Positions 27,509 to 45,857 of a stretch of 64,000 nucleotides of DNA are shown one piece after another. Within the stretch, counting starts at the first letter, position 1; each line of letters begins with the position of its first letter. The notes under the pieces are model-generated. The model saw nothing but the letters and a program-made list of their open reading frames with translations. It searched no databases and had not been told where the DNA came from. The position numbers were made by a program, and so were the translations under genes. The DNA comes from Planktothricoides raciborskii GIHE-MW2 (GTDB lineage: Bacteria > Cyanobacteriota > Cyanobacteriia > Cyanobacteriales > Laspinemataceae), in contig NZ_CP159837.1 of assembly GCF_040564635.1 (NCBI RefSeq), positions 291,801-355,800 of the forward strand, in the 5' to 3' direction.

Positions 27509-28672
27509 ATGTTAAAATCTCTCCCATATCCCGTGACAAATCCTTCGATTAAACCCCCAAGTCAATCACCGCTCATTCAATCATATAAAACCAATTGGTG
27601 GAGAGATCCACAAAAACAAAAACCCCTAGTTTCATTAATTGTGCCTGGGTACAACGAAGCGGCGATCGTGGAACAAAATCTCACTATTCTCTGCGAGTAT
27701 ATGGAATCTCTCCAGGATACCTATGACTGGGAAATTGTGGTGATTAATGATGGCAGTTTGGATGAGACCGGAGAACTGGCGGAAGCCTTTGCAAGTACCA
27801 GAGAAAATGTGTATGTTTTACATCATATCACCAATTTCGGACTCGGCCAAGCCCTTAAATTTGGCTTTAATTACTGTCATGGGGATTATGTTGTCGTCAT
27901 CGATTTGGATCTGAGTTATGCTCCAGAACATATCGAAAGACTTCTCAGCAAAATGCGAGAAACTCTGGCGAAAATTGTCGTAGCTTCTCCTTATATAGAA
28001 GGAGGAAATATTTCTAATGTTCCTTGGGCTAGGAAAAAATTAAGTATCTGGGCTAACCGATTTTTATCCGCGACTTCTAAGGGAGAATTAGCCACAGTCA
28101 CCGGCATGGTGCGAGCTTATGATGGGCAGTTTTTGCGATCGCTAAATTTGCGTTCCATGAGCATGGATATCAATCCAGAAATTATCTATAAAGCCAGAAT
28201 TTTACGAGCGAGAATTGAAGAGATCCCGGCTCACTTAAACTGGCGAGTGGAGCGCACCGTGAAGAAGCCGAAAAGACGATCTAGCATGAGGATTTGGCGG
28301 CAAATTTGGTCGGTTTTATTCTCTGGATTTATTTCTCGACCTGTGATATTTTTCTTAATTCCAGGCTTATTCTTGTTTGGCTTTTCTTGTTTAGCGAATG
28401 CTTGGGTACTCATTCATACTTTTACCAATTATCAAAACTTACCGGCTGATTGGTTTCTGGATCGCTTTTCCGATGCGGTCGCTGGGGCTTTTCACCAGGC
28501 GCCGCACACCTTTATTATTGGTGGCATGACTTTGATGTTGGCAATTCAGTTAGTAAGCTTGGGAATTATTTCCATGCAAACCAAAAGCAATTTTGAAGAA
28601 ATGTTTTACCTAGGAACAGCGATTTATAAATTAAATAAGCAAAATAAGCAAGAATTGAATAAAAAACATTAA
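27509..28672 (+). CDS. GT2 polyprenyl-phosphate glycosyltransferase (ArnC/GtrB/DPM1-like) with C-terminal TM helices
   Basis: LVSLIVPGYNEA, VVINDGSLDET and a DLD motif, with two C-terminal hydrophobic segments. Confidence 0.85.
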   Translation: MLKSLPYPVTNPSIKPPSQSPLIQSYKTNWWRDPQKQKPLVSLIVPGYNEAAIVEQNLTILCEYMESLQDTYDWEIVVINDGSLDETGELAEAFASTRENVYVLHHITNFGLGQALKFGFNYCHGDYVVVIDLDLSYAPEHIERLLSKMRETLAKIVVASPYIEGGNISNVPWARKKLSIWANRFLSATSKGELATVTGMVRAYDGQFLRSLNLRSMSMDINPEIIYKARILRARIEEIPAHLNWRVERTVKKPKRRSSMRIWRQIWSVLFSGFISRPVIFFLIPGLFLFGFSCLANAWVLIHTFTNYQNLPADWFLDRFSDAVAGAFHQAPHTFIIGGMTLMLAIQLVSLGIISMQTKSNFEEMFYLGTAIYKLNKQNKQELNKKH

Positions 28673-28695
28673 AAAAGTCCCAGAACATCACTAAC

Positions 28696-28730
28696 CCGGT
28701 TTCTTCAACAAGCCGGTTTTTTTGGCTGAC
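28696..28730 (+). terminator. hairpin aacccggtttcttcaacaagccggttttttt after the GT2 gene
   Basis: Stem aaccgg/ccggtt followed by a T-run. Confidence 0.4.
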
Positions 28731-29032
28731 TTGAATACCAGGAAGCTGGTTTTTTTTAAAATAACGGGTTTTTCCCAAAGGTTTTCCAAAAATATGCCAA
28801 TTTGGCAACACGGATTTAGAAAAATAGTGTTTCATAGAAATATCTGGCGTTCCCATCAATGGCGATCGCTGTTGAGTCTAAAAAATCTGTCAATTTAGCA
28901 AAACCCAGCCAAAAATTAAGTTGGCTATTGCCGATTGATTCAACGGATTTTTTATACTTTTTTTAATAATCAAAAAAATCAAAAAGCAATCAAATTAATT
29001 TACACCGATTTAAAACCTAGGAGTTTGACATC

Positions 29033-30265
29033 ATGGTTGCAGAAATTACCAAACAAAAAACTATCACATTACCTTCCGATCAAGAAGCTTCTGGTAGAAC
29101 CCTGGGCGATGAAGAAATCGCCTTGGTCGCTGAGGCGATCCGCAGTGGAACTTTGACCAGCACCAAAGGAAATTTTGTTAAAGAATTAGAACAAAAATTT
29201 GCCGATCGCCTGGGGGTAAAACACGCTTACGCTTGTGCCTCTGGAACCGCAGCCATTCATGTAGCGGTAGCGGCGATCGATCCAGAACCCGGAGATGAAA
29301 TTGTCACCACTTCCATCACCGATATGGGAGGCTTAACTCCGATTATTTATCAAGGAGCAATTCCCGTTTTTGCCGATGTTGATCCGAAAACTTGGAATGT
29401 GACCGCAGAAACCATTGAACCTTGTTTGAGCGATCGCACCAAAGCCATCATCGTCACTCATTTATTCGGCAATCCTTGCAACATGAGCGAGATTATTGAA
29501 CTCGCGAAATCTCGCAATATTCCCGTGATTGAAGACTGTGCTCAGGCTTACGGTGCCAAACATAATCATCAGCACGTTGGCACTCTGGGAACCATTGGTT
29601 GTTTCAGTTTACAACAAGGTAAACATATTACTACTGGGGAAGGTGGATTTGTTGTCACCAACGATGACGCTTTAGCCCGTCGGATGTACTTATTTATCAA
29701 CAAAGCTTGGGGTTACGGAGATCCAAATCCAGACCACTACTTTTTAGCCCTAAATTATCGCATCAGCGAATTACAAGGGGCTGTTGCGGTTGCCCAACTC
29801 AAGAAATTAGATGGAGTGATTTCCAGTCGCATCACCACCGCCAACAAACTGACAGAAAAATTGCAAGATATTGCCGGAATTGAAACCCCTTGGGCTGATC
29901 CGCGTAACATTCACACTTACTGGAAATATTGTCTACGGGTTGACAGTGAAGTCATTCCCAATGGCCCCGTAGGATTAGCGAAACTACTAAAAGAAAAAGG
30001 CATTTTCTCAGCGCCTCGATATATCCAGAAACCTGCTTTTATGTGCGAAATTTTCCAAAAACAACGCACCTTTGGGAATTCTCGCTATCCCTTTACCTTA
30101 GCCCGACCCGAAGCCGTTGACTACGATCGCGCCCGATTTGCCGGTACTTTTGCCGGATTAGAAAGCGTGCTCGTATTACCTTGGAACGAGCGTTACACCA
30201 ACGATCATGTTGACTATATTGCCAGCGAAATTCTCAACGCGGTGGAATTACTGGTAAATCGCTAA
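29033..30265 (+). CDS. DegT/DnrJ/EryC1/StrS-family PLP-dependent sugar aminotransferase
   Basis: Family-wide blocks including FSLQQGKHITTGEGG (PLP lysine). Length 410 aa. Confidence 0.9.
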   Translation: MVAEITKQKTITLPSDQEASGRTLGDEEIALVAEAIRSGTLTSTKGNFVKELEQKFADRLGVKHAYACASGTAAIHVAVAAIDPEPGDEIVTTSITDMGGLTPIIYQGAIPVFADVDPKTWNVTAETIEPCLSDRTKAIIVTHLFGNPCNMSEIIELAKSRNIPVIEDCAQAYGAKHNHQHVGTLGTIGCFSLQQGKHITTGEGGFVVTNDDALARRMYLFINKAWGYGDPNPDHYFLALNYRISELQGAVAVAQLKKLDGVISSRITTANKLTEKLQDIAGIETPWADPRNIHTYWKYCLRVDSEVIPNGPVGLAKLLKEKGIFSAPRYIQKPAFMCEIFQKQRTFGNSRYPFTLARPEAVDYDRARFAGTFAGLESVLVLPWNERYTNDHVDYIASEILNAVELLVNR

Positions 30266-30478
30266 TTAAGGTTAGTTATTTCACCAATAGCCAAGGGGCT
30301 CATCCCAGTATAATCGGGGCGAAGCATTGCGGCGATTAAGTGATCGTTAAGCATCTTAAATTCCGGAATGGTTTGCCCCAAAAAAACCGGGCTAATCGCC
30401 GATAGTTTTCAACAAATTAATCTCGATTAGCTATTAGCAACTCAGCATAAATTTTTAATAAAAAACAGGTTAATCATT

Positions 30479-31510
30479 ATGACGACAAAAACTAAATTTG
30501 GACTGGTTGGGGCAGGGGCGATCGCCCAAGCTTATGCTCAAGCATTTGAAGCCAGTGAAACCGCTGAACTTGTGGGAGTTGCCGATCTGAGAACCGAAGC
30601 TGCCCAAGCCCTCGGCGAAAGATTAGGATGCCCCAGTTACGAATCATATCAAGCAATGGGTGAAGCGTCAGAACTCGACGCAGTAATTATCTGCACCCCT
30701 CCTGTCACCCATGAGGCAATTGCCATACATTTTTTAGAAAGTCAGATTCCTGTTTTGTGCGAAAAACCCCTGAGTATTGACCTTGCAAGTGCTCGGAGAA
30801 TGGTGGATGCAGCGCAAAAAGCCGGAGTAAAACTCACAATGGCTTCAAAATTCCGCTACGTCGAAGATGTCATCAAAGCAAAAAGCATTGTATCTTCGGG
30901 AATTTTAGGGGAAATTGTCTTATTTGAAAATGCTTTTACCTCGCGGGTTGATATGTCATCTCGTTGGAATGCCAAACCAGAAATTTCTGGGGGCGGGGTG
31001 TTAATTGATAACGGCACTCACTCCATTGATATTATGCGCTATTTCCTCGGAAGATTGGCAGAAGTACAGGTAGTCGAAGCCAAACGAATTCAAGGTTTGC
31101 CAGTTGAAGATACGGTGCGTATCTTTGCTAAAAGTGTCAGCGGTGTTGTCGGCAATATCGATCTTTCTTGGAGTATCAACAAAGAACTCGATTACTATAT
31201 CCGAATTTACGGTTCTCAAGGAACAATTTCTGTCGGCTGGCAAGAATCTAAATACCGTCAAAGTTATAGTAAAGATTGGATTAAATTTGGCAATGGCTAC
31301 GACAAAGTACAGGCATTCCGCAGTCAAATTGAAAATTTTGCTAAAGGCATTAAAGATGAAGAAAATCTGTTAATTAATCACGAAGATGCTCTGGCATCTG
31401 TAGAAGTAATTGAAGCCGCTTATGCAGCACTAGAAAACAGCAAGTGGACAAAAGTCGGACATCAAGAAAATATTAAATTCAGAATCGATCGCTTGCAATC
31501 AGCAGCTTAA
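30479..31510 (+). CDS. Gfo/Idh/MocA-family NAD-dependent sugar oxidoreductase
   Basis: N-terminal Rossmann FGLVGAGAIAQ and an EKP motif (LCEKPLS). Length 343 aa. Confidence 0.85.
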   Translation: MTTKTKFGLVGAGAIAQAYAQAFEASETAELVGVADLRTEAAQALGERLGCPSYESYQAMGEASELDAVIICTPPVTHEAIAIHFLESQIPVLCEKPLSIDLASARRMVDAAQKAGVKLTMASKFRYVEDVIKAKSIVSSGILGEIVLFENAFTSRVDMSSRWNAKPEISGGGVLIDNGTHSIDIMRYFLGRLAEVQVVEAKRIQGLPVEDTVRIFAKSVSGVVGNIDLSWSINKELDYYIRIYGSQGTISVGWQESKYRQSYSKDWIKFGNGYDKVQAFRSQIENFAKGIKDEENLLINHEDALASVEVIEAAYAALENSKWTKVGHQENIKFRIDRLQSAA

Positions 31511-31664
31511 TTTTCACCTGTTTATGGTGGGCTATGCCCACCAACATTCCCTAGGGGTAAATACCCACCATATCTGATGGATCAACCATCAATCCTAAAG
31601 CGTAATTATTGTTTGGATAAAAATCAGAAAAAAATTATCCTTGAGTAACCCATGAGGTTTTGAT

Positions 31665-32288
31665 ATGACGGTTAAAATTCATCCCACAGCCAACATTGAA
31701 TTAGGGGTGACAATTGGCGAAAAAACATCTATCTGGGACAATGTGCATATTCGTCACTCCACTCAAATTGGCGAAGAATGTATTATTGGGGAAAAAAGTT
31801 ATATTGCTTATGGGGTGACGATTGGCGATCGCGTGAAAATAAACGCTTTTGTCTATATTTGCACCGCTGTCACCATAGAAGATGGAGTGATGATTTCAGC
31901 CTCAACTACCTTTACTAATGACCGCTTTCCCAGAGCCACCACTTCAGATTTAAAACAGTTAAGAACCTCCGATCCCGATGACCATACTTTGCCAACTCTG
32001 GTCAAAGAAGGAGCAACCATTGGTGCCGGTTGTACCATTGGTAATAACCTGGAAATTGGTCGTTTTGCGATGATTGGCATGGGGTCTTTGGTGACTAAAT
32101 CAATCCCGGATTTTCATCTGGCAATTGGCCATCCAGCGAAGTCCATTGGTTGCGTGTGTCGCTGTGGAGAACCTTTGCTTCGTTTCACCCATGAAACAGA
32201 ACAATTTGACGAGGTTACTTGTTCTGTTTGCGGATTAAAATACTCTGTAAAACATCAAGTGGTGACAGAACTTACTCCTCCCGTTTGA
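31665..32288 (+). CDS. left-handed beta-helix (hexapeptide) sugar N-acyltransferase with C-terminal Cys4 ribbon
   Basis: Repeating [LIV]G hexads. The C-terminus has CVCRCG ... CSVCG. Confidence 0.8.
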   Translation: MTVKIHPTANIELGVTIGEKTSIWDNVHIRHSTQIGEECIIGEKSYIAYGVTIGDRVKINAFVYICTAVTIEDGVMISASTTFTNDRFPRATTSDLKQLRTSDPDDHTLPTLVKEGATIGAGCTIGNNLEIGRFAMIGMGSLVTKSIPDFHLAIGHPAKSIGCVCRCGEPLLRFTHETEQFDEVTCSVCGLKYSVKHQVVTELTPPV

Positions 32289-32324
32289 AATGATTACAAG
32301 ACCGGAAAAGTAGGAGCATAACCG

Positions 32325-33689
32325 ATGAGCGATCGCAATTTATCATCTACCATAAAAAATCCCCAGATAGAACATCCCAAAACAGAAAGTTGGGCAATTA
32401 TCGGTGGTGGGATGCTGGGCATGACTTTAGCCCATCGTCTGGTGCAACAAGGCAAAAATGTCACCTTATTTGAAAGTGCCAATTATTTAGGTGGATTGGC
32501 AAGTGCTTGGCAACTGGGTGATTTAGTTTGGGATCGCCATTATCATGTCACCTTGTTGTCAGATACTTATTTAAAAAATCTGTTAGATGAACTGGGTTTA
32601 GCCGCCGAAATGCAATGGGTGGAAACTCGCACCGGCTTATATACCAATGGCAAGTTATATTCGATTTCTAATAGTATCGAATTTCTTCGAGATTTTCCCC
32701 TAGGGTTACTCGGTAAAATCCGCTTTGCTTTAACCATTCTCTATGGGTCAAAAATTAAAAATTGGCAAAAACTAGAAAAAATATCTGTGAGTGATTGGCT
32801 AATCCGCTGGTCGGGCAAGTCGGTGTTTGAGAAAATTTGGTTGCCCCTACTGCGATCGAAGCTGGGAGAGAACTATAAAATCGCGTCTGCTTCCTTTATT
32901 TGGGCAATTATTGCCCGACTATATGCGGCCCGTCGTACCGGATTGAAAAAAGAAATGTTTGGCTATGTTCCCGGTGGATATGCCAAAATTATCGATCGCT
33001 TTGCCCAAGTTTTAGCGGCAGAAAATGTTAAGATAGAACTCGGTCATCGGGTGACAAGAATTGAGCGATTTAACCAAGGCATCAAGATTCAGTTTGACAA
33101 TGGGCATGAAGCAAGGTGCGATCGCGTAATTGTCACCTGCGCTGCCCCAATTGCCGCGCAAATTTGCCCGGACTTAACCGCTGATGAAATCAATCGACTC
33201 AAAGCCATTCAATATCAGGGAATTATTTGTGCTTCTCTGCTATTGAAGAAGCCTTTATCTGACTTCTATGTCACCAACATTACTGAGGACTGGGTTCCCT
33301 TTACCGGGGTAATTGAAATGTCCGCCTTAGTCGATCTCCAAAACTTCCACGGCAATGCTTTGGTTTACCTGCCGAAATATGTCACCCAAAACGACCCGGA
33401 TTTTGCTTTATCTGATTCAGAAATTAAAGCAAAATTCATTCAAGGTCTGCAAAGGATGTATCCGGAGTTTGACCCCAGGGACATCCTCTGTTTCCAAGTC
33501 TCGAAAGTCCGGTATGTCCTGGCAATTTCTACCCTAAATTACTCAGAAATGTTGCCGCAAATTAACACCTCTATCCCCGGATTACATATTATCAACACCG
33601 CGCATATTCTCAACGGCACATTGAATGTGAATGAAACCATTCAGCTTGCGGAAAAAGTAAGTCAACAGCTTTTTACTCTGCCTATTTAA
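32325..33689 (+). CDS. FAD/NAD(P)-binding amine-oxidase-fold oxidoreductase
   Basis: IIGGGMLGMTLAHRL ... ESANYLGGLA dinucleotide-binding start. Length 454 aa. Confidence 0.7.
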   Translation: MSDRNLSSTIKNPQIEHPKTESWAIIGGGMLGMTLAHRLVQQGKNVTLFESANYLGGLASAWQLGDLVWDRHYHVTLLSDTYLKNLLDELGLAAEMQWVETRTGLYTNGKLYSISNSIEFLRDFPLGLLGKIRFALTILYGSKIKNWQKLEKISVSDWLIRWSGKSVFEKIWLPLLRSKLGENYKIASASFIWAIIARLYAARRTGLKKEMFGYVPGGYAKIIDRFAQVLAAENVKIELGHRVTRIERFNQGIKIQFDNGHEARCDRVIVTCAAPIAAQICPDLTADEINRLKAIQYQGIICASLLLKKPLSDFYVTNITEDWVPFTGVIEMSALVDLQNFHGNALVYLPKYVTQNDPDFALSDSEIKAKFIQGLQRMYPEFDPRDILCFQVSKVRYVLAISTLNYSEMLPQINTSIPGLHIINTAHILNGTLNVNETIQLAEKVSQQLFTLPI

Positions 33690-33719: not shown

Positions 33720-34388
33720 ATGAACCAGCTATCTTCCATAAAACTTTTACCACCAGAGACCTTGTTAAAAACTGGTGCCGTCGATCATGCTGATTGGAAC
33801 TATCGACCTATTTTAGGCTGGATTCAACGTCAAAGATTTAATCTGATTATATCTTTGTTGGCCAAAGAAAGGGTCAATCGACTTTTAGAAGTCGGTTATG
33901 GCAGTGGTGTCTTTATGCCTGAATTAAGCGATCGCTGTCGGGAACTGTACGGAATTGATATTCACCAAAAACAAGCATCAGTGAATAAAGTTTTGGCCGA
34001 ATTTAATATTTCAGCAAAACTTTATTCGGGTAGTGCCACATTACTCCCATTTAAAAATAATTTTTTTGACTGTTTAGTGGCCGTTAGCAGTCTTGAATTT
34101 ATTGATAATTTAGATGCAGCTTCTCAGGAAATGCAGCGAGTTCTCAAGCCGGGAGGTTCTCTAGTTGTTGTGACTCCAGGTGCTTCAAAAATTGTGGATA
34201 TCGGATTAAAACTTCTTACGGGAAAAAGTGCGAAAAATGACTATGGCGATCGCCGTCAATCATTAATTCCTACTTTGCTGAAATATTTTACCATTCAACA
34301 AAAAACTACCGTACCTAGATTTGACAGTGGTCTGTTCTGTCTTTACACTGGCTTAAAACTTTGCCCTCGTCTTAAGAAGAAAATTTAA
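33720..34388 (+). CDS. class I SAM-dependent methyltransferase
   Basis: Motif I LEVGYGSGVF and a post-I acidic residue. Length 222 aa. Confidence 0.75.
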   Translation: MNQLSSIKLLPPETLLKTGAVDHADWNYRPILGWIQRQRFNLIISLLAKERVNRLLEVGYGSGVFMPELSDRCRELYGIDIHQKQASVNKVLAEFNISAKLYSGSATLLPFKNNFFDCLVAVSSLEFIDNLDAASQEMQRVLKPGGSLVVVTPGASKIVDIGLKLLTGKSAKNDYGDRRQSLIPTLLKYFTIQQKTTVPRFDSGLFCLYTGLKLCPRLKKKI

Positions 34389-34470: not shown

Positions 34471-36141
34471 ATGAAAAACACGATAAAAATCAGATTAACG
34501 ACTAATGAAAATTGGCAATTTTTGCCTAATTCATTTAAGTTTTTATTAGTTGTAGTTTTAGCGATCGGCATTTTTTTTAGGTTTGCTAACCTGGAGCAAA
34601 AAATTTACTGGGGCGATGAAGCTTTTACTTCTCTGTGGATTTCTGGTCATACATCAACGGAGTTAATGGCCAGTCTTTTTACCGGGGAAATTATTCAAGT
34701 TGAAGACTTCCAAAAATATCAGGGTATTTTTCCGGGAAATAACGTCATTGATACCGTGAATGCTCTAGCAAAAGATACTCCTTTGATGCCACCACTGTAC
34801 TTTGCCCTGGTGCGCTGTTGGGTGGGAGTTTTTGGTGACTCGATCGCCGCTATAAGAGCGCTTTCTGCTGTGATTAGTTTATTCGTATTTCCAGCGATCT
34901 ATTGGCTATGTTGGGAATTGTTTAATTCATCATTAGTCGGATGGATTGTGATCGCCCTTACCGCTGTATGTCCTTATCAAGTTTTATACGCCCAAGAAGC
35001 GAGACCATATATCTTATGGGCAGTGACAATTTTACTTTCTAGTGCCTGTTTACTCCGAGCCATCAGGATTAATAAACCGCTCAATTGGGGCATATATGCG
35101 ATCGCTTTGACTGCCAGTCTATACACGCATCTATTTTCTGTATTTGTGGCCGTCGGGCAGGGAATTTATCTTCTCATAATTCACCGGTTTCGCTTGAATA
35201 AAATATCGATCAACTATTTGCTATCTTCTTTGGCAGCAGTCCTCTTATTTTTCCCTTGGTTTTTATGCATCATAAAATTTCAACAGTATTATCCAGATAG
35301 TTCTGGTGCTTCTATTTTTACTTTATCCAAGCGCTTAATCGGTTTGTTTACTCGATGCTTTATCGATTTCGGATCGGATTATTCAGACTCAGTTATAACA
35401 CTTATTATAATGACGATAATGAGCAGTATTATTATTATACTAATTGGTTATAGCTTTTGGTTTTTAATTTTTCATAATCCTGTGAAAATATGGGGTTTTG
35501 TGCTTCTGTCGAGTCTGCCAATCCTGCCTCTAGCCGTTTTGAGGGATTTAATCAAAGTATCTCAAGTGCTTCTAACCAGTCCAAGATATTTGTTTCCGGT
35601 TATTTTATATGTACAAATATCTGTGGCTTATTTGATATATATTTGGCTTCAAGGCAATCAAACAAATCATAAAAAATACCGAATTGTTTTCGTATCATTA
35701 ATTGCATCAGGTATATTATCTTCTGCCGTTAGCTTGCCAGCCGAAACTTGGTGGAATAAGCCAATCCCAATTCAATATCCTCGAATTGTCGAGAAGATAA
35801 ATCAATCTCAAAATGCCCTCATTATTAGTGATAGTTACTTATGGGCGATGTGGAATTTAATTTACTATCCTAACTTGGATACTTCAAATCTACAGTTTCA
35901 ATTGTTTACCCCCGAAACCCTAGAAATGTTTGACTTTGCTCAAAACATTAACATGAAATCAAGAGTTACTGGGAAGAATACAGCCAGGGACGATGAAAAT
36001 CAAAAAATATTTTTATTCTGGCCATCTAAGGAGTTGATTAATAAATTAAAAAATACTCATAATTGGGCTGTTGAATCTGTAAAAAATGTAAATTTTTTAT
36101 GGAATGTTACATCTCTAAGCCAGAAAAATAATATATCCTAA
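34471..36141 (+). CDS. GT-C fold (ArnT/PMT, GT39/83-like) polytopic membrane glycosyltransferase, paralog 1
   Basis: About 11 TM helices with a first-loop acidic motif (WGDEAF) typical of lipid-linked-donor GT-C enzymes. The 5' ~620 bp are near-identical to the next gene. Confidence 0.7.
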   Translation: MKNTIKIRLTTNENWQFLPNSFKFLLVVVLAIGIFFRFANLEQKIYWGDEAFTSLWISGHTSTELMASLFTGEIIQVEDFQKYQGIFPGNNVIDTVNALAKDTPLMPPLYFALVRCWVGVFGDSIAAIRALSAVISLFVFPAIYWLCWELFNSSLVGWIVIALTAVCPYQVLYAQEARPYILWAVTILLSSACLLRAIRINKPLNWGIYAIALTASLYTHLFSVFVAVGQGIYLLIIHRFRLNKISINYLLSSLAAVLLFFPWFLCIIKFQQYYPDSSGASIFTLSKRLIGLFTRCFIDFGSDYSDSVITLIIMTIMSSIIIILIGYSFWFLIFHNPVKIWGFVLLSSLPILPLAVLRDLIKVSQVLLTSPRYLFPVILYVQISVAYLIYIWLQGNQTNHKKYRIVFVSLIASGILSSAVSLPAETWWNKPIPIQYPRIVEKINQSQNALIISDSYLWAMWNLIYYPNLDTSNLQFQLFTPETLEMFDFAQNINMKSRVTGKNTARDDENQKIFLFWPSKELINKLKNTHNWAVESVKNVNFLWNVTSLSQKNNIS

Positions 36142-38186: not shown

Positions 38187-38522
38187 ATGAGTAATCAACC
38201 CTTGACCACATTGGAGAAATCTACTATAACTTCGGAAATTGTCTCCCTAATTTTGGCCAATGTTCGGGACATTGCCGAGGAACAAGATATAGAAATTTCT
38301 GATAATTTAGACGAAAATACTCCGCTGTTTGGTAAGCACGGCTTATTTGATTCCTTGGGACTGGTCTCCCTGGTGGTCGCGGTGGAAGAAGCGATCGCCG
38401 ATAAATATGGAGTTACTGTGAGTCTCGCGGATGAAAAAGCCATGTCCCAAAAGCACAGCCCCTATCGTAATATCAGTTCTCTAGCTGAATATGCCAGTAG
38501 TTTAATTCCTACGGAAACGTAA
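38187..38522 (+). CDS. acyl carrier protein-like (phosphopantetheine attachment DSL motif)
   Basis: GLFDSLGLVSLVVAVEEA in an acidic 111-aa protein. Confidence 0.65.
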   Translation: MSNQPLTTLEKSTITSEIVSLILANVRDIAEEQDIEISDNLDENTPLFGKHGLFDSLGLVSLVVAVEEAIADKYGVTVSLADEKAMSQKHSPYRNISSLAEYASSLIPTET

Positions 38523-38527: not shown

Positions 38528-39226
38528 ATGGATCATCCGATTACTTTGATTACCGGAACTCGCAAAGGAATTGGCAAATTTTTAGCCGAACACTATGTCG
38601 CCCAAGGACATCATGTCATTGGTTGCAGTCGCGGGGAAATCGATTGGAAATTAGACGGTTATATTCATTACGTCGCGGATGTTGCGGATGAAAAAGCGGT
38701 TCAGGCAATTTTTGCCGATTTACGCCAAACTTATGGTCGGCTAGATCATTTAATTAATAATGCGGGAATGGCTTCTATGAATCATTCTTTGCTCACTCCC
38801 GTTTCCACAGTTCACAAACTGTTAGATACGAATGTGGTCGGCACTTTTCTCTTTTGTCGAGAAGCGGCTAAATTAATGAAAAAAAATAAGTATGGTCGCA
38901 TCGTGAATTTCACCACGATCGCCGTACCCCTGAAATTAGCAGGAGAAGCAATTTATGTAGCATCAAAAGCAGCAGTGCTTTCTTTAACGGAAGTTTTAGC
39001 CAGAGAATTTGCGGAATTTGGCATTACGGTTAATTCCGTGGGTCCCGTACCCATTGAGACGGATTTAATTCGGGCTGTCCCGAAAGAAAAAATTGACCAG
39101 TTACTTGCCAAACAAGCGATTCACCGTTTGGGAACCTGTGAAGATGTGGCTAATGTGATTGACTTTTATCTCAAAAAAGAAAGTGGCTTAGTTACAGGTC
39201 AAAATCTGTTTTTAGGGGGCGTCTAA
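38528..39226 (+). CDS. SDR-family oxidoreductase (FabG-like ketoacyl reductase)
   Basis: TGTRKGIGK, NNAG and YVASKAAV (YxxxK). Confidence 0.85.
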   Translation: MDHPITLITGTRKGIGKFLAEHYVAQGHHVIGCSRGEIDWKLDGYIHYVADVADEKAVQAIFADLRQTYGRLDHLINNAGMASMNHSLLTPVSTVHKLLDTNVVGTFLFCREAAKLMKKNKYGRIVNFTTIAVPLKLAGEAIYVASKAAVLSLTEVLAREFAEFGITVNSVGPVPIETDLIRAVPKEKIDQLLAKQAIHRLGTCEDVANVIDFYLKKESGLVTGQNLFLGGV

Positions 39227-39288: not shown

Positions 39289-39789
39289 ATGAGTAAAATC
39301 ATTTTTTCCTCGGTGCTGAATAGTGATTATTATGATGATTTAGAAAAGCTGATGTTTTTCAACCCCCAACAAGAAAAAGTCAGAAATGAGGTAATTTCAG
39401 CGGTAGAACGCTATGGTCAACCGAAAATTTACCGGGATGGCGATCGCCTGAGAATTGGGGTGGGTTCTTTCTCAATGGTGCAAGCATTATTTGCCCTGAA
39501 TGGTCAAAAAGCCGATCGGCAATTGCTGGGGATGATTGCTTATATGCGCGAAAATCCTGACAATATGGCGATTTTGCATATCGTGGTGCGAGAAGACTAT
39601 TCTGCGGTGGGAATTCATGGTAATGAAATGTTACTAATGCACTTAATCGATCGCGTCAGGGAAATTGCCGCTAAAATTAAAGGCATAAGTTGCGTAACCC
39701 TTGCCTATAAATCAGAAAAAATTACCAAAATTCCGGTCAAACACCGAATGGCTGAATCAGGAATTACGCATGAGGTCGGTAGGGTGTGA
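39289..39789 (+). CDS. hypothetical protein (possible acyl-CoA N-acyltransferase-like fold)
   Basis: 166-aa ORF in operon context. I recognise no strong motif. Confidence 0.45.
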   Translation: MSKIIFSSVLNSDYYDDLEKLMFFNPQQEKVRNEVISAVERYGQPKIYRDGDRLRIGVGSFSMVQALFALNGQKADRQLLGMIAYMRENPDNMAILHIVVREDYSAVGIHGNEMLLMHLIDRVREIAAKIKGISCVTLAYKSEKITKIPVKHRMAESGITHEVGRV

Positions 39790-39874
39790 AAGCGCAAAGC
39801 GTAACGTACCAATATCCCATATAAGTAGACGGGCAGAAATAACCACAGACCCAATGAGAAAAAAACTGTCATTC

Positions 39875-39900
39875 CCGCGAAGGCGGGAATCCACAGCCTA
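39875..39900. repeat. second copy of the gtcattcccgcgaaggcgggaat hairpin core
   Basis: Matches the core at 24037-24062. Confidence 0.5.
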
Positions 39901-40015: not shown

Positions 40016-41362
40016 GTGTATATTGACTTTTTACTTGACATATTTAATCGCCACCGAGAACAAGAGGCAATCGTCTGGCGAAACCAGCTATTTTCCTACG
40101 ATTGGCTATTAAATGCGATCGCCGATTGGCGCGAAAAACTTAGGGGAATTGAAGGGTTAGTGGTCAGCTTGGAAGCAGATTTTTCGCCCAACGCGATCGC
40201 CTTGTTGTTAGTTTTAATCGAACAGAACTGCATCATTGTTCCCCTGAGTAGTTCTGTAGACATGAAAAAAGCGGAATTTCGGGAAATTGCTGAGGTAGAA
40301 ACAATCATTAAAGTCAGTGATTTAGAAGCAGTGGAAATTGAGGAAACGCCCATCACTGCCACTCACGAACTTTTGCTAAAACTGAAACAGCAAAGCAGAC
40401 CGGGACTGATTCTCTTTTCCTCCGGTTCTACGGGAAAAAGTAAAGCGACCGTCCATGATTTTGTGCCGCTGTTAGAAAAATTTAAAGAACCACGCCAATT
40501 TTTACGCACCCTGACTTTTTTACTCTTCGATCATATCGGCGGAATTAATACCTTATTTTATAGTTTAGCCAATGGGGGATTAGTGGTTAGTATTGAAGAT
40601 AGGTCGCCGGATGTAGTTTGCCAAGCCATTGAAAAATACAAGCTGGAATTATTACCTACTTCACCCACTTTTATCAATTTAATCTTGTTGAGTGAAGCCT
40701 ACAAACGCTATGATATTTCTAGTCTTAAGCTGGTGACTTATGGCACGGAAGTCATGGCAGAAACCACCTTAAAACGATTTAACCAACTATTTCCCAATGT
40801 TAGATTATTACAAACCTATGGATTATCAGAAATTGGCATTATGCGATCAAAGTCAAAATCTTCTGATTCTTTGTGGGTAAAAGTTGGGGGCGAAGGATTT
40901 GAAACTCGCATCGTGGATGGTCAGCTAGAAATTAAAGCAAAATCCGCCATGTTGGGCTACATGAATGCACCGAGTCCTTTTACGGAAGATGGCTGGTTAA
41001 AAACTGGTGATGCGGTAGAAGTTGACGGAGAATATATTAGATTTTTAGGCCGAAAATCAGAAATGATTAATGTGGGTGGGGAAAAAGTTTACCCCGCAGA
41101 AGTCGAAAGTGTTCTTCAGTTAATGGACGGAGTGGACGATGTGGCCGTTTGCGCGGAAAAAAACCCAATTACCGGGCAAATTGTTAAGGCCAAAGTTAAA
41201 CTAAGTACCAATGAAAGCCTCCCAGAATTTAGAAAACGAATGTGGAGTTTTTGTCAAAAAACAATGCCTAAATTTAAAATTCCCCAAAAAGTCGTTTTGG
41301 CAAATGATTGGATGCATAGCGAACGGTTTAAGAAAATGAGGAGGGACATTGAAACTGGTTGA
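40016..41362 (+). CDS. AMP-dependent synthetase/ligase (short acyl-ACP/CoA synthetase-like adenylating enzyme)
   Basis: AMP-binding P-loop LFSSGSTGKSKAT, plus YGLSE and GWLKTGD motifs. Length 448 aa. Confidence 0.85.
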   Translation: MYIDFLLDIFNRHREQEAIVWRNQLFSYDWLLNAIADWREKLRGIEGLVVSLEADFSPNAIALLLVLIEQNCIIVPLSSSVDMKKAEFREIAEVETIIKVSDLEAVEIEETPITATHELLLKLKQQSRPGLILFSSGSTGKSKATVHDFVPLLEKFKEPRQFLRTLTFLLFDHIGGINTLFYSLANGGLVVSIEDRSPDVVCQAIEKYKLELLPTSPTFINLILLSEAYKRYDISSLKLVTYGTEVMAETTLKRFNQLFPNVRLLQTYGLSEIGIMRSKSKSSDSLWVKVGGEGFETRIVDGQLEIKAKSAMLGYMNAPSPFTEDGWLKTGDAVEVDGEYIRFLGRKSEMINVGGEKVYPAEVESVLQLMDGVDDVAVCAEKNPITGQIVKAKVKLSTNESLPEFRKRMWSFCQKTMPKFKIPQKVVLANDWMHSERFKKMRRDIETG

Positions 41363-41984
41363 ACCAATTGTCAGCGATCGCTATACCCCAGTGGAATATC
41401 ACCAGTTTTCCCAGCCCAAAAATCTCCGTATAGCGATGAAAATTGCCGGGATACTTTCTTGGCCATTAGTATTACCTTTAGCCTGGTTATCTCGAAAATC
41501 GGATTTTATCTTTCGCACGGTTTCTGAATTATTAGCAATTGTCCCTTATTTATTCGGGGTAATTATCCGATATGAGTTCTACCGCTGGACTTTAACCTGG
41601 TGTGGGAAAAATGTGGCGATCGGCTTTGGCACAATATTGACTTATCGCAATATTAAAATCGGCAGCAATGTCAATATTGGCAACCATATTACGATTCATT
41701 ATTGCGATATTGGGTCTTATGTTTTGATTGCCGACGGTTGCCAACTTTTGAGTGGTTCCCGCTATCACAATTTCGATCGCACCGACATTCCCATCGCCTT
41801 ACAAGGTGGCCAACTACGGCGAATTCAAATTGGCGATGACTGCTGGATCGGGGCCAATGCAGTGGTGATGAACGATATCGGTCAAGGGAGTGTGGTTGGG
41901 GCGGGGGCGGTTGTCACCAAGGCCGTAGAACCTTATACCGTTGTAGCGGGAAATCCGGCAAAACCAATCAGGAGTCGTTTATGA
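41349..41984 (+). CDS. membrane-anchored hexapeptide-repeat acyltransferase (WcaF-like)
   Basis: N-terminal TM segments followed by left-handed-helix hexads (IGSNVNIGNHITI ... IGANAVVM ... VVGAGAVV). Confidence 0.75.
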   Translation: MKLVEPIVSDRYTPVEYHQFSQPKNLRIAMKIAGILSWPLVLPLAWLSRKSDFIFRTVSELLAIVPYLFGVIIRYEFYRWTLTWCGKNVAIGFGTILTYRNIKIGSNVNIGNHITIHYCDIGSYVLIADGCQLLSGSRYHNFDRTDIPIALQGGQLRRIQIGDDCWIGANAVVMNDIGQGSVVGAGAVVTKAVEPYTVVAGNPAKPIRSRL

Positions 41985-42994
41985 ATCCCATGAATCAAAT
42001 CCAAGCCTCAACCGAGGGTAGGGTGGGCAAAATTTTGCCCACCCTACGGATAGCGATCGCCTGTATTCTCAGCACGATCCTCGGCTGTGCTTCCAAAGCC
42101 AACATTTCCCCTCCCTTTGAAGCGGGGGCAAAGGGGTATTCCCCAACCCCGAAATCGACTAACGACTTTCCTGACTATTCTCGTACCCCGGTGCTATTTG
42201 TCCACGGTTCCGGCTTAAGTTCAAGCACATGGCAGCCCATGATCAAACATCTGCAAGAAATTGGTTATCCATCGGCATATCTTTACGCCGTGGAGATCCA
42301 GCCCAATGATGGGGCAAACGATCGCGCCGCCGAAACCTTCATTGCCCCTGCGGTGGAGTCGATGTTGGCCAAAGCCCAGGCAGCCGCCAGAGATGCCGCC
42401 AAACAAAAATCTAACGTCCCAAAAAATATCGAACCGATACCCGTGAAGGTGGATATCGTAGCGCACAGTATGGGGGCGGTAAGCAGTCGCTGGTACATCG
42501 CCAAACTGCATCCAGAACGGGTACGCACTTGGATTTCCCTTGCCGGGGCTAATCATGGCACCAATGCCCTCTGCGGTTATTCCGGAGCAGGGAATCAACA
42601 AATGTGTCCAGCCTTTGCCACTTCTGCGGAGGACAGTCCCTTGCAGGTGGCACTCAATGGCACCCCCAGCGCCCCGATTGATGAAACTCCCTTCGGACTG
42701 GGAGTTGATTCCCCAGAAGTCAAAACCATTCCCCCAGACACAGACCGAGAGATTTTATATCTCTCCGTGCGAATTGAACCCGATGGTTGGATTAAACCAG
42801 AAAATAGTGCCGTAATTGATGGGGCTGGAGGACTGCCCATCCCCATCCCTGCGGGAGTCCCGGTGCAAGAAACCAGTCCCGGCAACTACTTATTTCAAGG
42901 TCGCGTCGGCCACGATCCCCTGCCCCAAGACCCGGATCTAATTCGTCTGGTAGCCAGTATGCTTAGTGTCCGCGACGGACAGGAGAGGCGTTAA
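41981..42994 (+). CDS. lipoprotein lipase/esterase (alpha/beta hydrolase, Lipase_2-like)
   Basis: Lipobox ILGCAS, nucleophile elbow AHSMGA, and PVLFVHGSG. A 30-bp perfect palindrome lies in the signal-peptide coding region. Confidence 0.7.
   Translation: MNPMNQIQASTEGRVGKILPTLRIAIACILSTILGCASKANISPPFEAGAKGYSPTPKSTNDFPDYSRTPVLFVHGSGLSSSTWQPMIKHLQEIGYPSAYLYAVEIQPNDGANDRAAETFIAPAVESMLAKAQAAARDAAKQKSNVPKNIEPIPVKVDIVAHSMGAVSSRWYIAKLHPERVRTWISLAGANHGTNALCGYSGAGNQQMCPAFATSAEDSPLQVALNGTPSAPIDETPFGLGVDSPEVKTIPPDTDREILYLSVRIEPDGWIKPENSAVIDGAGGLPIPIPAGVPVQETSPGNYLFQGRVGHDPLPQDPDLIRLVASMLSVRDGQERR
42018..42047. repeat. 30-bp perfect palindrome gtagggtgggcaaaattttgcccaccctac, in frame within a CDS (identical copy at 47762-47791)
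   Basis: Exact self-complementarity, and exact identity to the intergenic copy at 47762-47791. Confidence 0.9.
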
Positions 42995-43713: not shown

Positions 43714-43714
43714 T

Positions 43715-44809
43715 ATGAAAGAAAAACAAGATTCCCTGAAAAAAAGAGAGACTTCCGTTCGTCGCTGGCTATACGGACTATTGGGTCTAATCATCACCAT
43801 TGTCTTTTTAGTCTGGGCATTACGGGGTGTATCCCCAGGGGTGGTATGGCAAGCGGTGCAACAATCCCAAGGAGAATGGGTGCTGCTGGGGTTAATCACC
43901 TTTATCAGTTCCTTTTCCATTCGGGCAAGACGTTGGGGCACCTTGCTGGGGGCACACCACGACCCAGGGTCCTTTAAAATCCGTCAATCTGCGGTGTTCA
44001 TTGGCTTTGCCGGTAATGCTATTCTCCCAGCCCATGCGGGAGAGGTGATTCGTTCTTTAATTCTGCACCGATTTGGCGGCGTTCCTTTGGGGGCAGCCCT
44101 GGGAAGCATCTTCGCCGAACGGTTGCTGGATGCGGTGGTCGCCTTTCTCTTATTATTAATTGCCCTGTTGTCCGTGACCCAAGCTAGTCACCTTGGGGCC
44201 GTACAACCGGGAAATTTCTCCTCTTTGCCCGTTGGCTGGATCGCGCTGGTGTTAGCGATCGCCTGTGTAATGTTCTTATCCGCCGCTAGATGGCCTTTGG
44301 CGATCGCGGAATTCGTTGGCAAAGTTAGCCGAGTCTTCGGTCTGGGTCGCCATGCCCCCCGAATTGAGGCGATCGTCCGCAGTCTACTCAGTGGACTCGA
44401 AGCCCTCCGCTATCCTCAACGGGGCATTATGGCGGTGATGGAGAGTTTCTGTATTTGGGGCATGACCGGCATGACCTACTGGTTCCTGATGTTGGCCTTT
44501 GGCATTAATACCCCCGGCCCAATGGGGGCTTTGTTCGTCCAAGGGGTTGTGGCATTAGCGATCGCCATTCCCTCGTCCCCCGGTTACTTAGGCCCATTTG
44601 AAGCCGCCATCAGATTCGGACTGGGACTCTACGCCATTCCCCCAGATGCGATCGTGGCTTTTGCCATCACCCTGAGAATTCTCATGTTCTTCAGTCTCAC
44701 CGCGATCGGATTTTTCCTCGCCACCCGGTTGGGTCTATCTTGGCATGACTTCATCCAAAGCAAAAACGACCAAAAAGCGGGTGTTTTCACCAAATCTGGA
44801 TCTGGGTGA
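43715..44809 (+). CDS. polytopic membrane protein of the lysylphosphatidylglycerol-synthase-TM / flippase-like (UPF0104) family
   Basis: Eight hydrophobic segments and an N-terminal KKRETSVRRWLYGLLGLIITIVFLVWALRGV typical of this family. Confidence 0.65.
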   Translation: MKEKQDSLKKRETSVRRWLYGLLGLIITIVFLVWALRGVSPGVVWQAVQQSQGEWVLLGLITFISSFSIRARRWGTLLGAHHDPGSFKIRQSAVFIGFAGNAILPAHAGEVIRSLILHRFGGVPLGAALGSIFAERLLDAVVAFLLLLIALLSVTQASHLGAVQPGNFSSLPVGWIALVLAIACVMFLSAARWPLAIAEFVGKVSRVFGLGRHAPRIEAIVRSLLSGLEALRYPQRGIMAVMESFCIWGMTGMTYWFLMLAFGINTPGPMGALFVQGVVALAIAIPSSPGYLGPFEAAIRFGLGLYAIPPDAIVAFAITLRILMFFSLTAIGFFLATRLGLSWHDFIQSKNDQKAGVFTKSGSG

Positions 44810-44855
44810 GGAGGCAAAAATTACGAAGAGAAACCCCATTCCTGAGATTAAAACC

Positions 44856-45857
44856 ATGAACAAAAATAAAAATAAGCAACAAAATAACAAACCCTACGCC
44901 AGCTTATCCCTAGACCTGGATAACAAATGGTCATATATGAAAACTCACGGCGATCGCGGTTGGGAAACTTTCCCCTCCTACTTGGATATTGTTGTGCCTC
45001 GGTTCCTGGAATTTCTCAAAGCCAGAAATCAGACCATTACTGTCTTTATTGTCGGTCAAGATGCGGCATTAGAAAAAAACCACCAAGCCCTAAAAGCGAT
45101 CGCCGATGCAGGCCATGAAATTGGCAATCATTCCTTTAATCACGAACCGTGGTTACATCTTTATTCCGAGGCAGAAATTGAACAAGAAATTGTCATAGCC
45201 CAACAGCAGATTAAGCAAGTCACGGGCAAACGTCCCATTGGATTTCGCGGCCCTGGTTTCAGTATTTCCCAAAACACTTTACAGGTTTTGAAAAGACAAG
45301 GCTATGAATATGATGCCTCAACTTTCCCCACTTTTCTCGGCCCGCTTGCCCGGGCTTATTATTTCCTCACCACCAAATTAGACCCGGAAGAACAACGCAA
45401 ACGCAAAGCATTATTTGGCAGTCTCGCCGAAGGATTTCGACCCTTAAAACCCTATCATTGGCATCTGGATGCCGGGGAAATTGTGGAAATTCCTGTAACT
45501 ACCATGCCCATTTTTAAAGTGCCGATTCATGTCAGCTATATTCTCTATCTCAGTCAATTTTCAACGGGGTTAGCCTTACTTTATTTTCGGATAGCCATGT
45601 TGTTATGCCGCTTAACCGGAGTGCAACCGTCTTTATTGCTTCATCCTTTGGATTTTCTTGGTTATGATGATGCCCCAGAGTTGGCATTTTTCCCGGCGAT
45701 GAAACTGCCCTCGGCAAAGAAAATAGAAATCCTCAGTCAAGTGCTTAATTTAATGTCCGATCGCTTCACAATTGTGACGATGCAGCAGTATGCTCGCGAA
45801 GTATCGCAAAAAGCGAATCTGCCCCTGGTGCAGCCAAATTTTCAACATAATTGTTGA
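44856..45857 (+). CDS. polysaccharide deacetylase (NodB homology domain)
   Basis: LSLDLD (TFDD-like motif) and GNHSFNHEPW (HSxxH). The start is chosen at MNKNK; an in-frame extension to 44745 would overlap the upstream gene by 65 bp. Confidence 0.8.
   Translation: MNKNKNKQQNNKPYASLSLDLDNKWSYMKTHGDRGWETFPSYLDIVVPRFLEFLKARNQTITVFIVGQDAALEKNHQALKAIADAGHEIGNHSFNHEPWLHLYSEAEIEQEIVIAQQQIKQVTGKRPIGFRGPGFSISQNTLQVLKRQGYEYDASTFPTFLGPLARAYYFLTTKLDPEEQRKRKALFGSLAEGFRPLKPYHWHLDAGEIVEIPVTTMPIFKVPIHVSYILYLSQFSTGLALLYFRIAMLLCRLTGVQPSLLLHPLDFLGYDDAPELAFFPAMKLPSAKKIEILSQVLNLMSDRFTIVTMQQYAREVSQKANLPLVQPNFQHNC

Follow-up and report, generated by a model that had tools for sequence, protein, structure and literature searches.

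A co-directional block of seventeen genes

Seventeen open reading frames (ORFs) follow one another on the forward strand at positions 27509-45857 of a DNA window from the cyanobacterium Planktothricoides raciborskii GIHE-MW2 (contig NZ_CP159837.1, positions 291,801 to 355,800). Here "the window" means that whole 64-kb stretch, on which the ORFs were called, and "the block" means the seventeen genes, which include those for a lipid-carrier-type glycosyltransferase, sugar-modifying enzymes, two polytopic glycosyltransferases, and a set of acyl-handling proteins (Table 1). A sequence-only reading of the window had described seventeen co-directional genes in ~18 kb and named the families present; the ORF coordinates bear out the arrangement, and Pfam and NCBIfam scans of the block ORFs reproduced all of the family calls. 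If orientation were random, 16 successive same-strand junctions would arise with a probability of ~1.5e-5 by simple arithmetic. Because of this figure, and because the block is conserved gene for gene in four other assemblies, we regard it as more than a chance arrangement. The same reading had described the gene starts as overlapping or abutting. This is true of the distal half, from the AMP-ligase gene through the LPG_synthase_TM gene, and of the acyl carrier protein (ACP) gene and the short-chain dehydrogenase/reductase (SDR) gene after it, where genes overlap or lie ≤5 nucleotides (nt) apart, but not of six junctions, whose gaps are 360, 213, 154, 184, 241, and 226 nt.

TABLE 1 Genes and predicted hairpins of the Planktothricoides block, in window coordinates
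Feature	Position	Strand	Evidence
Glycosyltransferase family 2 (GT2) protein, polyprenyl-phosphate glycosyltransferase type (ArnC/GtrB/DPMS-like)	27509..28672	+	Pfam Glycos_transf_2 1.5e-30
Terminator-like hairpin and T-run	28696..28716	+	Consensus scan; predicted
Second terminator-like hairpin	28737-28750		Consensus scan; predicted
DegT-family pyridoxal phosphate-dependent sugar aminotransferase	29033..30265	+	Pfam DegT_DnrJ_EryC1 8.6e-86
Gfo/Idh/MocA NAD-dependent sugar dehydrogenase, candidate UDP-GlcNAc 3-dehydrogenase	30479..31510	+	Pfam
Left-handed β-helix (LβH) N-acetyltransferase, WlbB/WbpD/QdtC class (3-amino sugars; Hex1)	31665..32288	+	PDB match 3MQG
Flavin adenine dinucleotide (FAD) oxidoreductase, PRK07233 family, protoporphyrinogen oxidase (PPO)/phytoene-desaturase-like fold	32325..33689	+	NF005560
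Class I S-adenosylmethionine (SAM) methyltransferase	33720..34388	+	Pfam Methyltransf_11 7.3e-19
GT-C-fold glycosyltransferase 1 (PMT_2, ArnT-like architecture)	34471..36141	+	Pfam 36.1 bits vs cut-off 26.1
GT-C glycosyltransferase 2 (PMT_2), tandem paralogue	36326..37945	+	Pfam 40.5 bits vs cut-off 26.1
Dedicated ACP	38187..38522	+	Weak PP-binding and DltC matches
FabG-like SDR (3-oxoacyl-ACP reductase type)	38528..39226	+	Pfam adh_short_C2 1.2e-45
166-amino-acid (aa) protein, possibly GNAT-like	39289..39789	+	No significant family
Stand-alone adenylating enzyme (AMP-ligase; acyl-ACP/CoA ligase type)	40016..41362	+	Pfam AMP-binding, AMP-binding_C
Membrane-anchored LβH acyltransferase (WcaF/WbbJ-like; Hex2)	41349..41984	+	Pfam Hexapep; WcaF family 7.8e-17 (NCBIfam)
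Exported lipoprotein serine esterase (LipA/PhaZ7-like)	41981..42994	+	Pfam Lipase_2, Palm_thioest
GNAT acyltransferase, small dedicated family, 239 aa	42994..43713	+	Orthologues match Acetyltransf_1
LPG_synthase_TM protein (MprF flippase-domain family), candidate flippase	43715..44809	+	Pfam 8.8e-41; TIGR00374
Cytoplasmic NodB-family de-N-acetylase	44856..45857	+	Pfam Polysacc_deac_1 1.9e-22

The hairpin and T-run directly 3' of the GT2 stop codon are kept in the related loci L001 and L002, which suggests more than one transcription unit. The GT2-DegT intergenic region (28673-29032) shows 86% mean column identity in the same two loci; beside the hairpin, it holds a conserved block with the HIP1 palindrome GCGATCGC. 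Upstream of GT2, we found no support for a leader element, the region being conserved within the close lineage only, and an Rfam scan of the window found no RNA family. Heptamer tandem repeats lie 5' of GT2 in some relatives (AATAACA at L001 945-1000 and L002 2735-2800; GGGGATT at L017 4800-4900), and the window is without them at the matching site. At the distal end, translation of the NodB gene is more likely to begin at 44856, giving 333 aa as in its orthologues, than at the opening of the ORF at 44745.

Candidate enzymes for a carrier-linked 3-amino sugar

The oxidoreductase and DegT genes had been read as the logic of a 3-amino-sugar pathway of the GnnA/GnnB or WbpB/WbpE kind, and this proposal is strengthened by the product of the gene that follows them. 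Hex1, the first of two LβH proteins, matches WlbB (3MQG) over its full length (residues 4-193) with an E value of 1.3e-32, and its next matches, a WxcM-like protein, 7S43, and QdtC, are all 3-amino-sugar N-acetyltransferases. The DegT protein matches perosamine synthase (3.5e-58), WbpE (1.7e-41), and ArnB (1.1e-41) in the PDB, scores that give no regiospecificity. The Gfo/Idh/MocA protein matches WlbA (3Q2K, 3.4e-23; 3Q2I, 4.1e-22) about as well as it does inositol dehydrogenase (7e-25), and an NCBIfam archaeal UDP-N-acetylglucosamine (UDP-GlcNAc) 3-dehydrogenase (1.1e-39) under the cut-off. The Wbp/Wlb trio of 3-dehydrogenase, 3-aminotransferase, and 3-N-acetyltransferase is present at the family level; the acetyltransferase matches WlbB specifically, while the other two fit the pathway without being specific for it. 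Pfam and NCBIfam scans of the block ORFs found neither the 6-dehydrogenase WbpA nor the 2-epimerase WbpI, and the starting substrate is therefore probably UDP-GlcNAc rather than its uronic acid, UDP-GlcNAcA; an Epimerase_2 gene occurs only in the L022 and L024 versions of the system described below.

The closest solved relatives of the GT2 protein are DPMS (5MLZ; 1.7e-18 over residues 38-287, the entire catalytic domain), ArnC (9HWJ; 2.7e-14), and GtrB (5EKP; 3.8e-13). A catalytic domain carrying the motifs DGSLDE and DLDLSYAPE (D-x-D...P-E), without the QxxRW of processive synthases, is followed by two C-terminal transmembrane (TM) helices (266-296 and 336-354), which is the build of the GtrB/DPMS-type GT2 of Gtr systems. 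Relatives and helices together point to a polyprenyl-phosphate glycosyltransferase. Scored against the ArnC equivalog NF007986, it reaches 56 bits for a cut-off of 529, as a homologue, not an orthologue, within the same GT2 subclass.

Three proteins could act on a sugar once it is on the carrier. The NodB-family protein retains the metal motifs DLD and HSFNH and has no signal peptide; its match to ArnD is weak (2.4e-5; NF011923, 23.7 bits against a cut-off of 382), and what the two share is the NodB superfamily only. The methyltransferase has a weak match to NodS (3.5e-6). The FAD protein belongs to NF005560/PRK07233 (455 bits; cut-off, 252), a family named only "hypothetical protein," and its second-best NCBIfam match is HpnE (4.8e-27). 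In a Foldseek comparison, its predicted structure (mean pLDDT, 86.7) was closest to PPO (2IVD; E value 8.4e-27, TM-score 0.78) and plant phytoene desaturase (5MOG; TM-score 0.82), followed by amine oxidases; the two top matches act on hydrophobic substrates. We had considered a UDP-sugar pyranose/furanose mutase for this enzyme and dropped the idea, since it has no GLF domain and its closest folds are those just named. For passage of the donor across the membrane, no GtrA, SMR, or MATE protein was found in the block, and the candidate flippase slot is occupied by the LPG_synthase_TM protein (TIGR00374, 91.8 bits; cut-off, 43.2). At 364 aa, it consists of the TM domain only, without the C-terminal aminoacyl-tRNA-dependent synthase domain of MprF.

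The GT-C transferases are the hypervariable part of the block

GT-C 1 and GT-C 2 are tandem paralogues with 66% identity, the first with ~12 TM segments; in an alignment of GT-Cs (A1), the WGDE motif of the first loop hardly varies. Searched by sequence against solved structures, they gave nothing, either as a single protein or as a 39-sequence profile; fold comparison alone gave matches. The AlphaFold model of GT-C 1 (mean pLDDT, 84.9) is closest to ArnT (5F15; E value 4.9e-7, TM-score 0.53, 12% identity), followed by PglB/STT3, ALG12, and Pmt4. With PMT_2 above its cut-off in both genes, the earlier description of the pair as ArnT/PMT-like GT-C transferases stands.

These are the genes in which relatives differ most. 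The near-identical Planktothricoides strain GCA_014698535.1 (L004) shares 98.7 to 99.3% nt identity with the window over the block; mismatches number 0-1 per 300 nt at 28.2-35.1 kb and 12-28 at ~35.7-37.9 kb. It also carries a third GT-C gene on a 1.85-kb insertion (L004 9728-11578), a presence/absence polymorphism between near-identical strains. Two relatives at a greater distance have biosynthetic proteins 84 to 99% identical to those of the block, while their GT-Cs are 88 to 93% identical in one and 44 to 53% in the other. Over all relatives, the biosynthetic genes are 84 to 100% identical and the GT-Cs 44 to 98%, in 2-3 copies, so that both sequence and copy number of the GT-C genes vary. 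A variable, acceptor-specific transferase of GT-C fold is what a Gtr-type system has in this position. The family alone is no marker of the system, because a scan of the genome collection with GT-C 2 returned 12 loci, 11 of which hold paralogues of 35 to 38% identity with no other block genes nearby.

The variability bears on the acceptor. Were the block a true analogue of the Arn, Lgm, and Flm systems, its GT-Cs would place a cationic diamino sugar on lipid A or the lipopolysaccharide core, lowering surface charge and conferring resistance to cationic peptides. The GT2/de-N-acylase/small flippase/GT-C logic is indeed shared with Arn, FlmK, and LgmABC (PMC4402001, PMC4993483), ArnT is the best match of the GT-C model, and core loci that lack the acyl genes would supply a sugar with a free amine. 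We nonetheless consider this unlikely. As an acceptor, lipid A is conserved, whereas the GT-Cs are the most variable proteins of the system and belong to the PMT_2 or GT87 type depending on the locus, which argues against lipid A and for a strain-variable glycan. In Planktothricoides, moreover, the amine is probably re-acylated and its charge lost, and a TM-score of 0.53 to ArnT is likeness at the fold level only, with PglB, STT3, and ALG12 nearly equal.

Protein O-glycosylation, with the PMT_2 GT-Cs placing the lipid-linked sugar on Ser/Thr residues of exported proteins (for example, pilins, S-layer proteins, or adhesins), we rank just behind lipid A modification among the unlikely alternatives. 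The Pfam assignment would fit it, as would an acidic D-E pair that is conserved in periplasmic loop 1 and is like the DE motif of the PMT family. So would the appearance of Pmt4 among the structural matches and the very large fn3/Big/Laminin_G proteins that adjoin the system in the locus of a Woeseiaceae metagenome-assembled genome (MAG). However, the GT-Cs show no sequence-level likeness to solved PMTs, their TM-scores to Pmt1, Pmt2, and Pmt4 are 0.30 to 0.48, below that to ArnT, and the conserved block encodes no candidate acceptor protein. We favor a strain-variable surface glycan as the acceptor.

A dedicated acyl module

The ACP carries a GL(L/F)DSxGLV motif whose Ser56 does not vary among 7 loci drawn from several phyla; its sole NCBIfam match, DltC, is weak (8e-4; 19.4 bits against a cut-off of 68). 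The SDR has TGxxxGIG and YxxxK and matches the NCBIfam 3-oxoacyl-ACP reductase at 4.8e-44, under the cut-off. The AMP-ligase shows the motifs SGSTGKSK, YGLSE, and GRKSE, has acyl-CoA ligases as its top NCBIfam matches, and is 65 to 72% identical to homologues across phyla (65 to 78% for ligase and SDR together). An interruption of its gene by an in-frame stop was considered and rejected, as homologues of 446-449 aa align over 99% of the 448-aa ORF.

Hex2, the second LβH protein, has a hydrophobic N-terminal segment. The esterase has a lipobox (ILGC) and the nucleophile motif GXSXG (AHSMGA), and its PDB matches are Bacillus subtilis LipA (4.8e-7) and PhaZ7 (2.9e-4). The 239-aa GNAT is itself a weak family match, whereas all five orthologues examined (5/5) match the generic Acetyltransf_1; its family comprises 278 representative clusters at E ≤ 1e-10. 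Long homologues of it are fused to a NodS-like class I methyltransferase in 7/10 cases and to a GT2 in 1/10, which connects the GNAT with the sugar pathway. The 166-aa protein matched no significant family; orthologous genes are present in L001, L003, and L020 and absent from L021-L024, and only cyanobacterial versions of the system have one. In the 226-nt gap between this gene and the AMP-ligase gene lies one of two copies in the window of a perfect 20-bp palindrome, ATTCCCGCGAAGGCGGGAAT (39871-39890; the other, at 24041-24060, follows the HEAT-repeat gene upstream of the block). The two copies have dissimilar flanks, 0.01 occurrences are expected by chance, and the palindrome could be a short repeated element or form a hairpin.

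Deacetylation followed by N-acylation with an ACP and an LβH enzyme is, at the level of family matches, the chemistry of LpxA/LpxC/LpxD and NodB/NodA. The product could then stay in the membrane as a free glycolipid with an N-acylated diamino sugar, comparable to lipid X or to Nod-type and hopanoid-glucosamine head groups, with the GT-Cs using another donor. The hopanoid head-group genes HpnI, HpnK, and HpnL form a triad of GT2, deacetylase, and LPG_synthase_TM family, and the FAD protein adds its HpnE match and a fold nearest to enzymes of hydrophobic substrates. We judge this improbable: practically all core loci examined include a GT-C gene, pointing to use of a lipid-phosphate donor, and the GT2 looks like a polyprenyl-phosphate transferase rather than HpnI (HpnB, at 2e-6, is the only such match).

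The block is a composite of a widespread core and a rare, portable acyl cassette

That the block should be syntenic in relatives was a prediction of the sequence-only reading, and it is kept gene for gene in GCA_014698535.1, an Oscillatoriales MAG, and a JGI metagenome. Homologues of the FAD protein, 55 to 74% identical, occur across many cyanobacteria and metagenomes, and scanning metagenomes with an FAD profile confirmed at least 465 loci. Neighborhoods were counted in the best 80 of these, using those with enough flanking sequence. DegT, Gfo, and LβH genes lay upstream on the same strand in 36/38 and a NodB gene downstream in 31/34; nearby polytopic ORFs were PMT_2 in 7/10 (5 above the cut-off) and GT87 in 1/10.

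The same set recurs in L017-L019, core loci that include Tolypothrix and Pseudanabaena, with GT2, DegT, Gfo, LβH, FAD, NodB, a polytopic GT-C, and either LPG_synthase_TM or EamA, the methyltransferase being optional. A hidden Markov model of alignment A1 was too narrow for the GT-Cs of other core loci, and hhalign and Pfam were applied to candidate polytopic ORFs instead; those of L017-L019 proved to be divergent GT-Cs, one a Pfam GT87 protein and the others aligned to the window GT-Cs at hhalign probabilities of 94 to 97%. No LPG_synthase_TM protein was called in L018 and L019, where a small EamA (ArnE/F-like) gene lies downstream. The flippase slot appears to be interchangeable between LPG_synthase_TM and a small EamA protein, flipping being a predicted function of both. 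We define the core as eight genes: GT2, DegT, Gfo/Idh/MocA, the WlbB-like acetyltransferase, the PRK07233-type FAD enzyme, NodB, GT-C(s), and a small flippase candidate.

To this core, the Planktothricoides block adds seven genes, from ACP to GNAT (ACP, SDR, the 166-aa gene, AMP-ligase, LβH, esterase, and GNAT). This module is a rare add-on, because none of its genes was found in the 25 core metagenome loci of at least 12 kb (0/25). It accompanies the core in three further lineages, a Leptolyngbyaceae MAG (L020), a Woeseiaceae (gammaproteobacterial) MAG (L022), and GCA_040961615.1 (L024), and since the same set recurs in this way, its genes are not chance neighbors. In L022, the identities to the block are 54% for GT2, 59% for NodB, 68% for AMP-ligase, 68% for SDR, 59% for Hex2, 42% for GNAT, and 45% for the esterase; LPG_synthase_TM is only 25% identical there, and the nucleotide-sugar genes differ. 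In L024, a PMT_2 GT-C gene stands between the SDR and AMP-ligase genes. ACP, SDR, and AMP-ligase genes also occur together without the core, in one locus beside GT4, GT2, and Wzy genes (O-antigen-like) and in another, with a GNAT, beside NeuB, formyltransferase, and AsnB genes (nonulosonic acid). This trio behaves as a portable glycan-acylation cassette.

The same modularity could mean that two unrelated systems have been juxtaposed, with ACP, AMP-ligase, GNAT, LPG_synthase_TM, and esterase serving MprF- or Dlt-like (amino)acylation and turnover of membrane lipids. Core and acyl genes do occur apart, DltC is the sole NCBIfam match of the ACP, LPG_synthase_TM is the flippase domain of MprF, and GC content is 0.36 in the GT-C genes against 0.52 from the lipase gene to LPG_synthase_TM. 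However, in the three further lineages that have both sets, their order is interleaved (NodB beside ACP; the GT-C between SDR and AMP-ligase), and LPG_synthase_TM is also found in L017, a core locus without acyl genes. Through its fusions, the GNAT is linked with the sugar pathway; the AMP-ligase is like acyl ligases and unlike DltA; and elsewhere the cassette is located in glycan loci. Of the alternatives considered here, we find this the hardest to credit, and we read core and cassette as parts of a single glycosylation system.

Relation to known systems

In the Arn pathway, an amino-sugar nucleotide is transiently N-acylated, loaded onto undecaprenyl phosphate by ArnC, deacylated by a NodB-type enzyme, flipped, and transferred by ArnT (PMC4402001); LgmABC of Bordetella and the Flm/FlmK system of Francisella are its hexosamine analogues (PMC4993483). 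The parallel that the sequence-only reading drew between the block and Arn is supported, in that ArnC and ArnT are among the best solved relatives of the GT2 and GT-C proteins. Aminotransferase, ArnC-type GT2, NodB-type enzyme, small flippase candidate, and ArnT-like GT-C are all present. The differences are no less clear. Scanning the 17 ORFs found no Formyl_trans or UDP-glucuronic acid decarboxylase domain, as in ArnA; the predicted sugar is of the 3-amino-hexose type (WlbB-like), not Ara4N, GlcN, or GalN; and LPG_synthase_TM takes the place of ArnE/F. The block further adds the FAD enzyme, the methyltransferase, the ACP-dependent acylation arm, and the exported esterase, and its GT-Cs are hypervariable and exist in more than one copy. 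Pfam scans of the block ORFs detected neither of the Dlt-type domains MBOAT and DltD. Judged by its predicted domains and model scores, the block is neither Arn, MprF, nor Dlt.

Three-component systems offer a closer parallel for the GT-Cs. In gtr operons, GtrA and GtrB are conserved and the "serotype-specific Gtr* (GT-C)" varies; flippases come from several families, and auxiliary enzymes can edit the lipid-linked donor, although in O-polysaccharide side-chain systems an epimerase is the only such enzyme known (PMC11127046). GtrA/GtrB/Gtr*, CsbB/GtcA/YfhO, and the Citrobacter pentofuranose systems share with the block a sugar synthase of the polyprenyl-phosphate type and a GT-C; in the place of their flippase, the block has a candidate. 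The GT-C variation in the block follows their pattern of a conserved synthase and flippase with a variable, acceptor-specific GT-C. Unlike them, the block has no GtrA-family protein, has up to seven tailoring or accessory proteins, and has a dedicated nucleotide-sugar pathway, the known systems delivering glucose (Glc), GlcNAc, galactose (Gal), ribofuranose (Ribf), or xylofuranose (Xylf). That pathway, in turn, is like WbpB/WbpE/WbpD (WlbA/WlbC/WlbB) in its Gfo, DegT, and LβH trio in conserved order; its product, however, would be loaded onto a lipid monophosphate carrier and not used by a Leloir transferase.

Tailoring of Nod factors employs the deacetylase NodB, the N-methyltransferase NodS, the N-acyltransferase NodA, and the ACP NodF. 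The block would similarly de-N-acetylate, N-methylate, and N-acylate a GlcNAc-type residue from a dedicated ACP, with weak NodB and NodS matches. It differs in that the substrate would be a lipid-linked monosaccharide, not a chitooligosaccharide, in the lack of NodA and NodC, and in that the acyl group would come from an AMP-ligase and SDR, not a NodE ketosynthase. A flavoenzyme that, with its partners, edits a sugar already on polyprenyl phosphate has a precedent in DprE1/DprE2, which act on decaprenyl-phospho-ribose (PMC11127046). The block may likewise pair a flavoenzyme with other enzymes on a carrier-linked sugar. The DprE1 flavoprotein fold is of the vanillyl-alcohol-oxidase type, whereas the FAD enzyme of the block has a PPO/phytoene-desaturase-like fold.

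A proposed pathway

We put at roughly 0.55 the probability that the block specifies a composite three-component, Arn/Lgm/Gtr-like periplasmic glycosylation system in which the lipid-linked donor would be tailored before transfer. Gfo/Idh/MocA, DegT, and the WlbB-like acetyltransferase would convert UDP-GlcNAc to a UDP-2,3-diacetamido-2,3-dideoxyhexose (GlcNAc3NAc type), which the ArnC/DPMS-like GT2 would load onto polyprenyl phosphate at the cytoplasmic face. The cytoplasmic NodB protein would take off one N-acetyl group on the carrier, much as ArnD does a formyl group, and in Planktothricoides the methyltransferase may methylate the freed amine. Re-acylation with a short, probably 3-hydroxy, acyl group could follow: the AMP-ligase would load an acid onto the ACP, the SDR would reduce it, and the membrane-anchored LβH protein and/or the GNAT would hand it to the sugar amine. 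This order of deacetylation, methylation, and acylation is modelled on Nod-factor tailoring. Every version of the system has the PRK07233 FAD enzyme, which might carry out a further oxidation or desaturation of the hydrophobic carrier-linked intermediate. LPG_synthase_TM would then move the donor across the membrane. In the periplasm, the two tandem GT-Cs would attach the sugar to acceptors that vary between strains, O-antigen or some other polysaccharide of the envelope being the most probable. The exported lipoprotein esterase may trim an ester on the donor or product.

Several points weigh against this pathway, for which all the grounds are homology and gene neighborhood. Neither the DegT nor the Gfo score is specific for a 3-position enzyme, and the FAD step carries no assigned chemistry. 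The nearest solved relatives of the AMP-ligase are aryl, fatty-acyl, and malonyl ligases, none prominent. ArnT, the top structural match of the GT-Cs, is compatible with a lipid A acceptor. In most loci (0/25 with any acyl gene), the core occurs without the module, which makes separate substrates conceivable, and the conserved hairpin of terminator type 3' of GT2 leaves a single operon in doubt. A search of the open-access full-text literature found no published description of the cluster, which does not prove it undescribed.

Other features of the window

A gene for a lysine-2,3-aminomutase-like radical SAM protein (24864-26021, +) and, 3 nt on, one for an ATP-grasp protein of the D-Ala-D-Ala-ligase family (~26024-27016) stand between the HEAT-repeat gene and GT2. 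The pair is found in three Planktothricoides-type assemblies, in which the radical SAM protein is identical, and is absent from L001 and L002, where GT2 directly follows the HEAT gene. It may be a lineage-specific add-on that forms and ligates beta-lysine, or it may be unrelated. A 167-aa ORF just upstream of GT2 (26992-27495, +) is called a gene in some assemblies. It is probably non-coding, matching no family and being of low complexity and rich in arginine; conservation in relatives, where it is seen 5' of GT2, is limited to the last ~270 nt and to the nucleotide level.

Farther upstream, at 13402-18610, a fusion of a CLC chloride channel, CBS, and two Usp domains (884 aa, -) lies beside an MscS-type channel (673 aa, +), an osmotic/ion-stress neighborhood. 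On the other side of the block, at 48836-55031 (-), three tandem paralogous membrane proteins of ~10 TM segments each (515, 575, and 522 aa) match no Pfam family and share N-terminal motifs such as NPQLFRE.KGRL and GTLNFIR.SP.S. Upstream of their genes is one for an ABC-transporter ATPase (54081-55031), with which they possibly form an unusual multi-permease exporter.

Implications

Envelope glycoconjugates of cyanobacteria are poorly characterized, and the core described here ranks among the better-conserved envelope loci of this analysis, its proteins sharing 55 to 81% identity over hundreds of environmental contigs. If the proposed pathway is correct, a GlcNAc3N-type sugar would be a new donor for three-component glycosylation, and lipid-linked donors would be open to extensive tailoring. 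The PRK07233 flavoprotein family would gain its first function, one based on gene context. We suggest, as a tentative idea and with less conviction than the pathway itself, that these loci represent an unrecognized cross-phylum class, in which a carrier-linked diamino sugar is deacetylated, methylated, re-acylated from an ACP, and oxidized by the FAD enzyme. Swappable tandem GT-Cs would then deliver it to different surface acceptors and might serve filamentous cyanobacteria as a strain-level generator of surface diversity, possibly against phages or grazers. The ACP-SDR-AMP-ligase cassette would explain unusual N-acyl groups on O-antigens and nonulosonic acids in other phyla, and the GT-C cassette would be a locus for strain typing and surface variation in a bloom-forming genus that produces taste-and-odor compounds.

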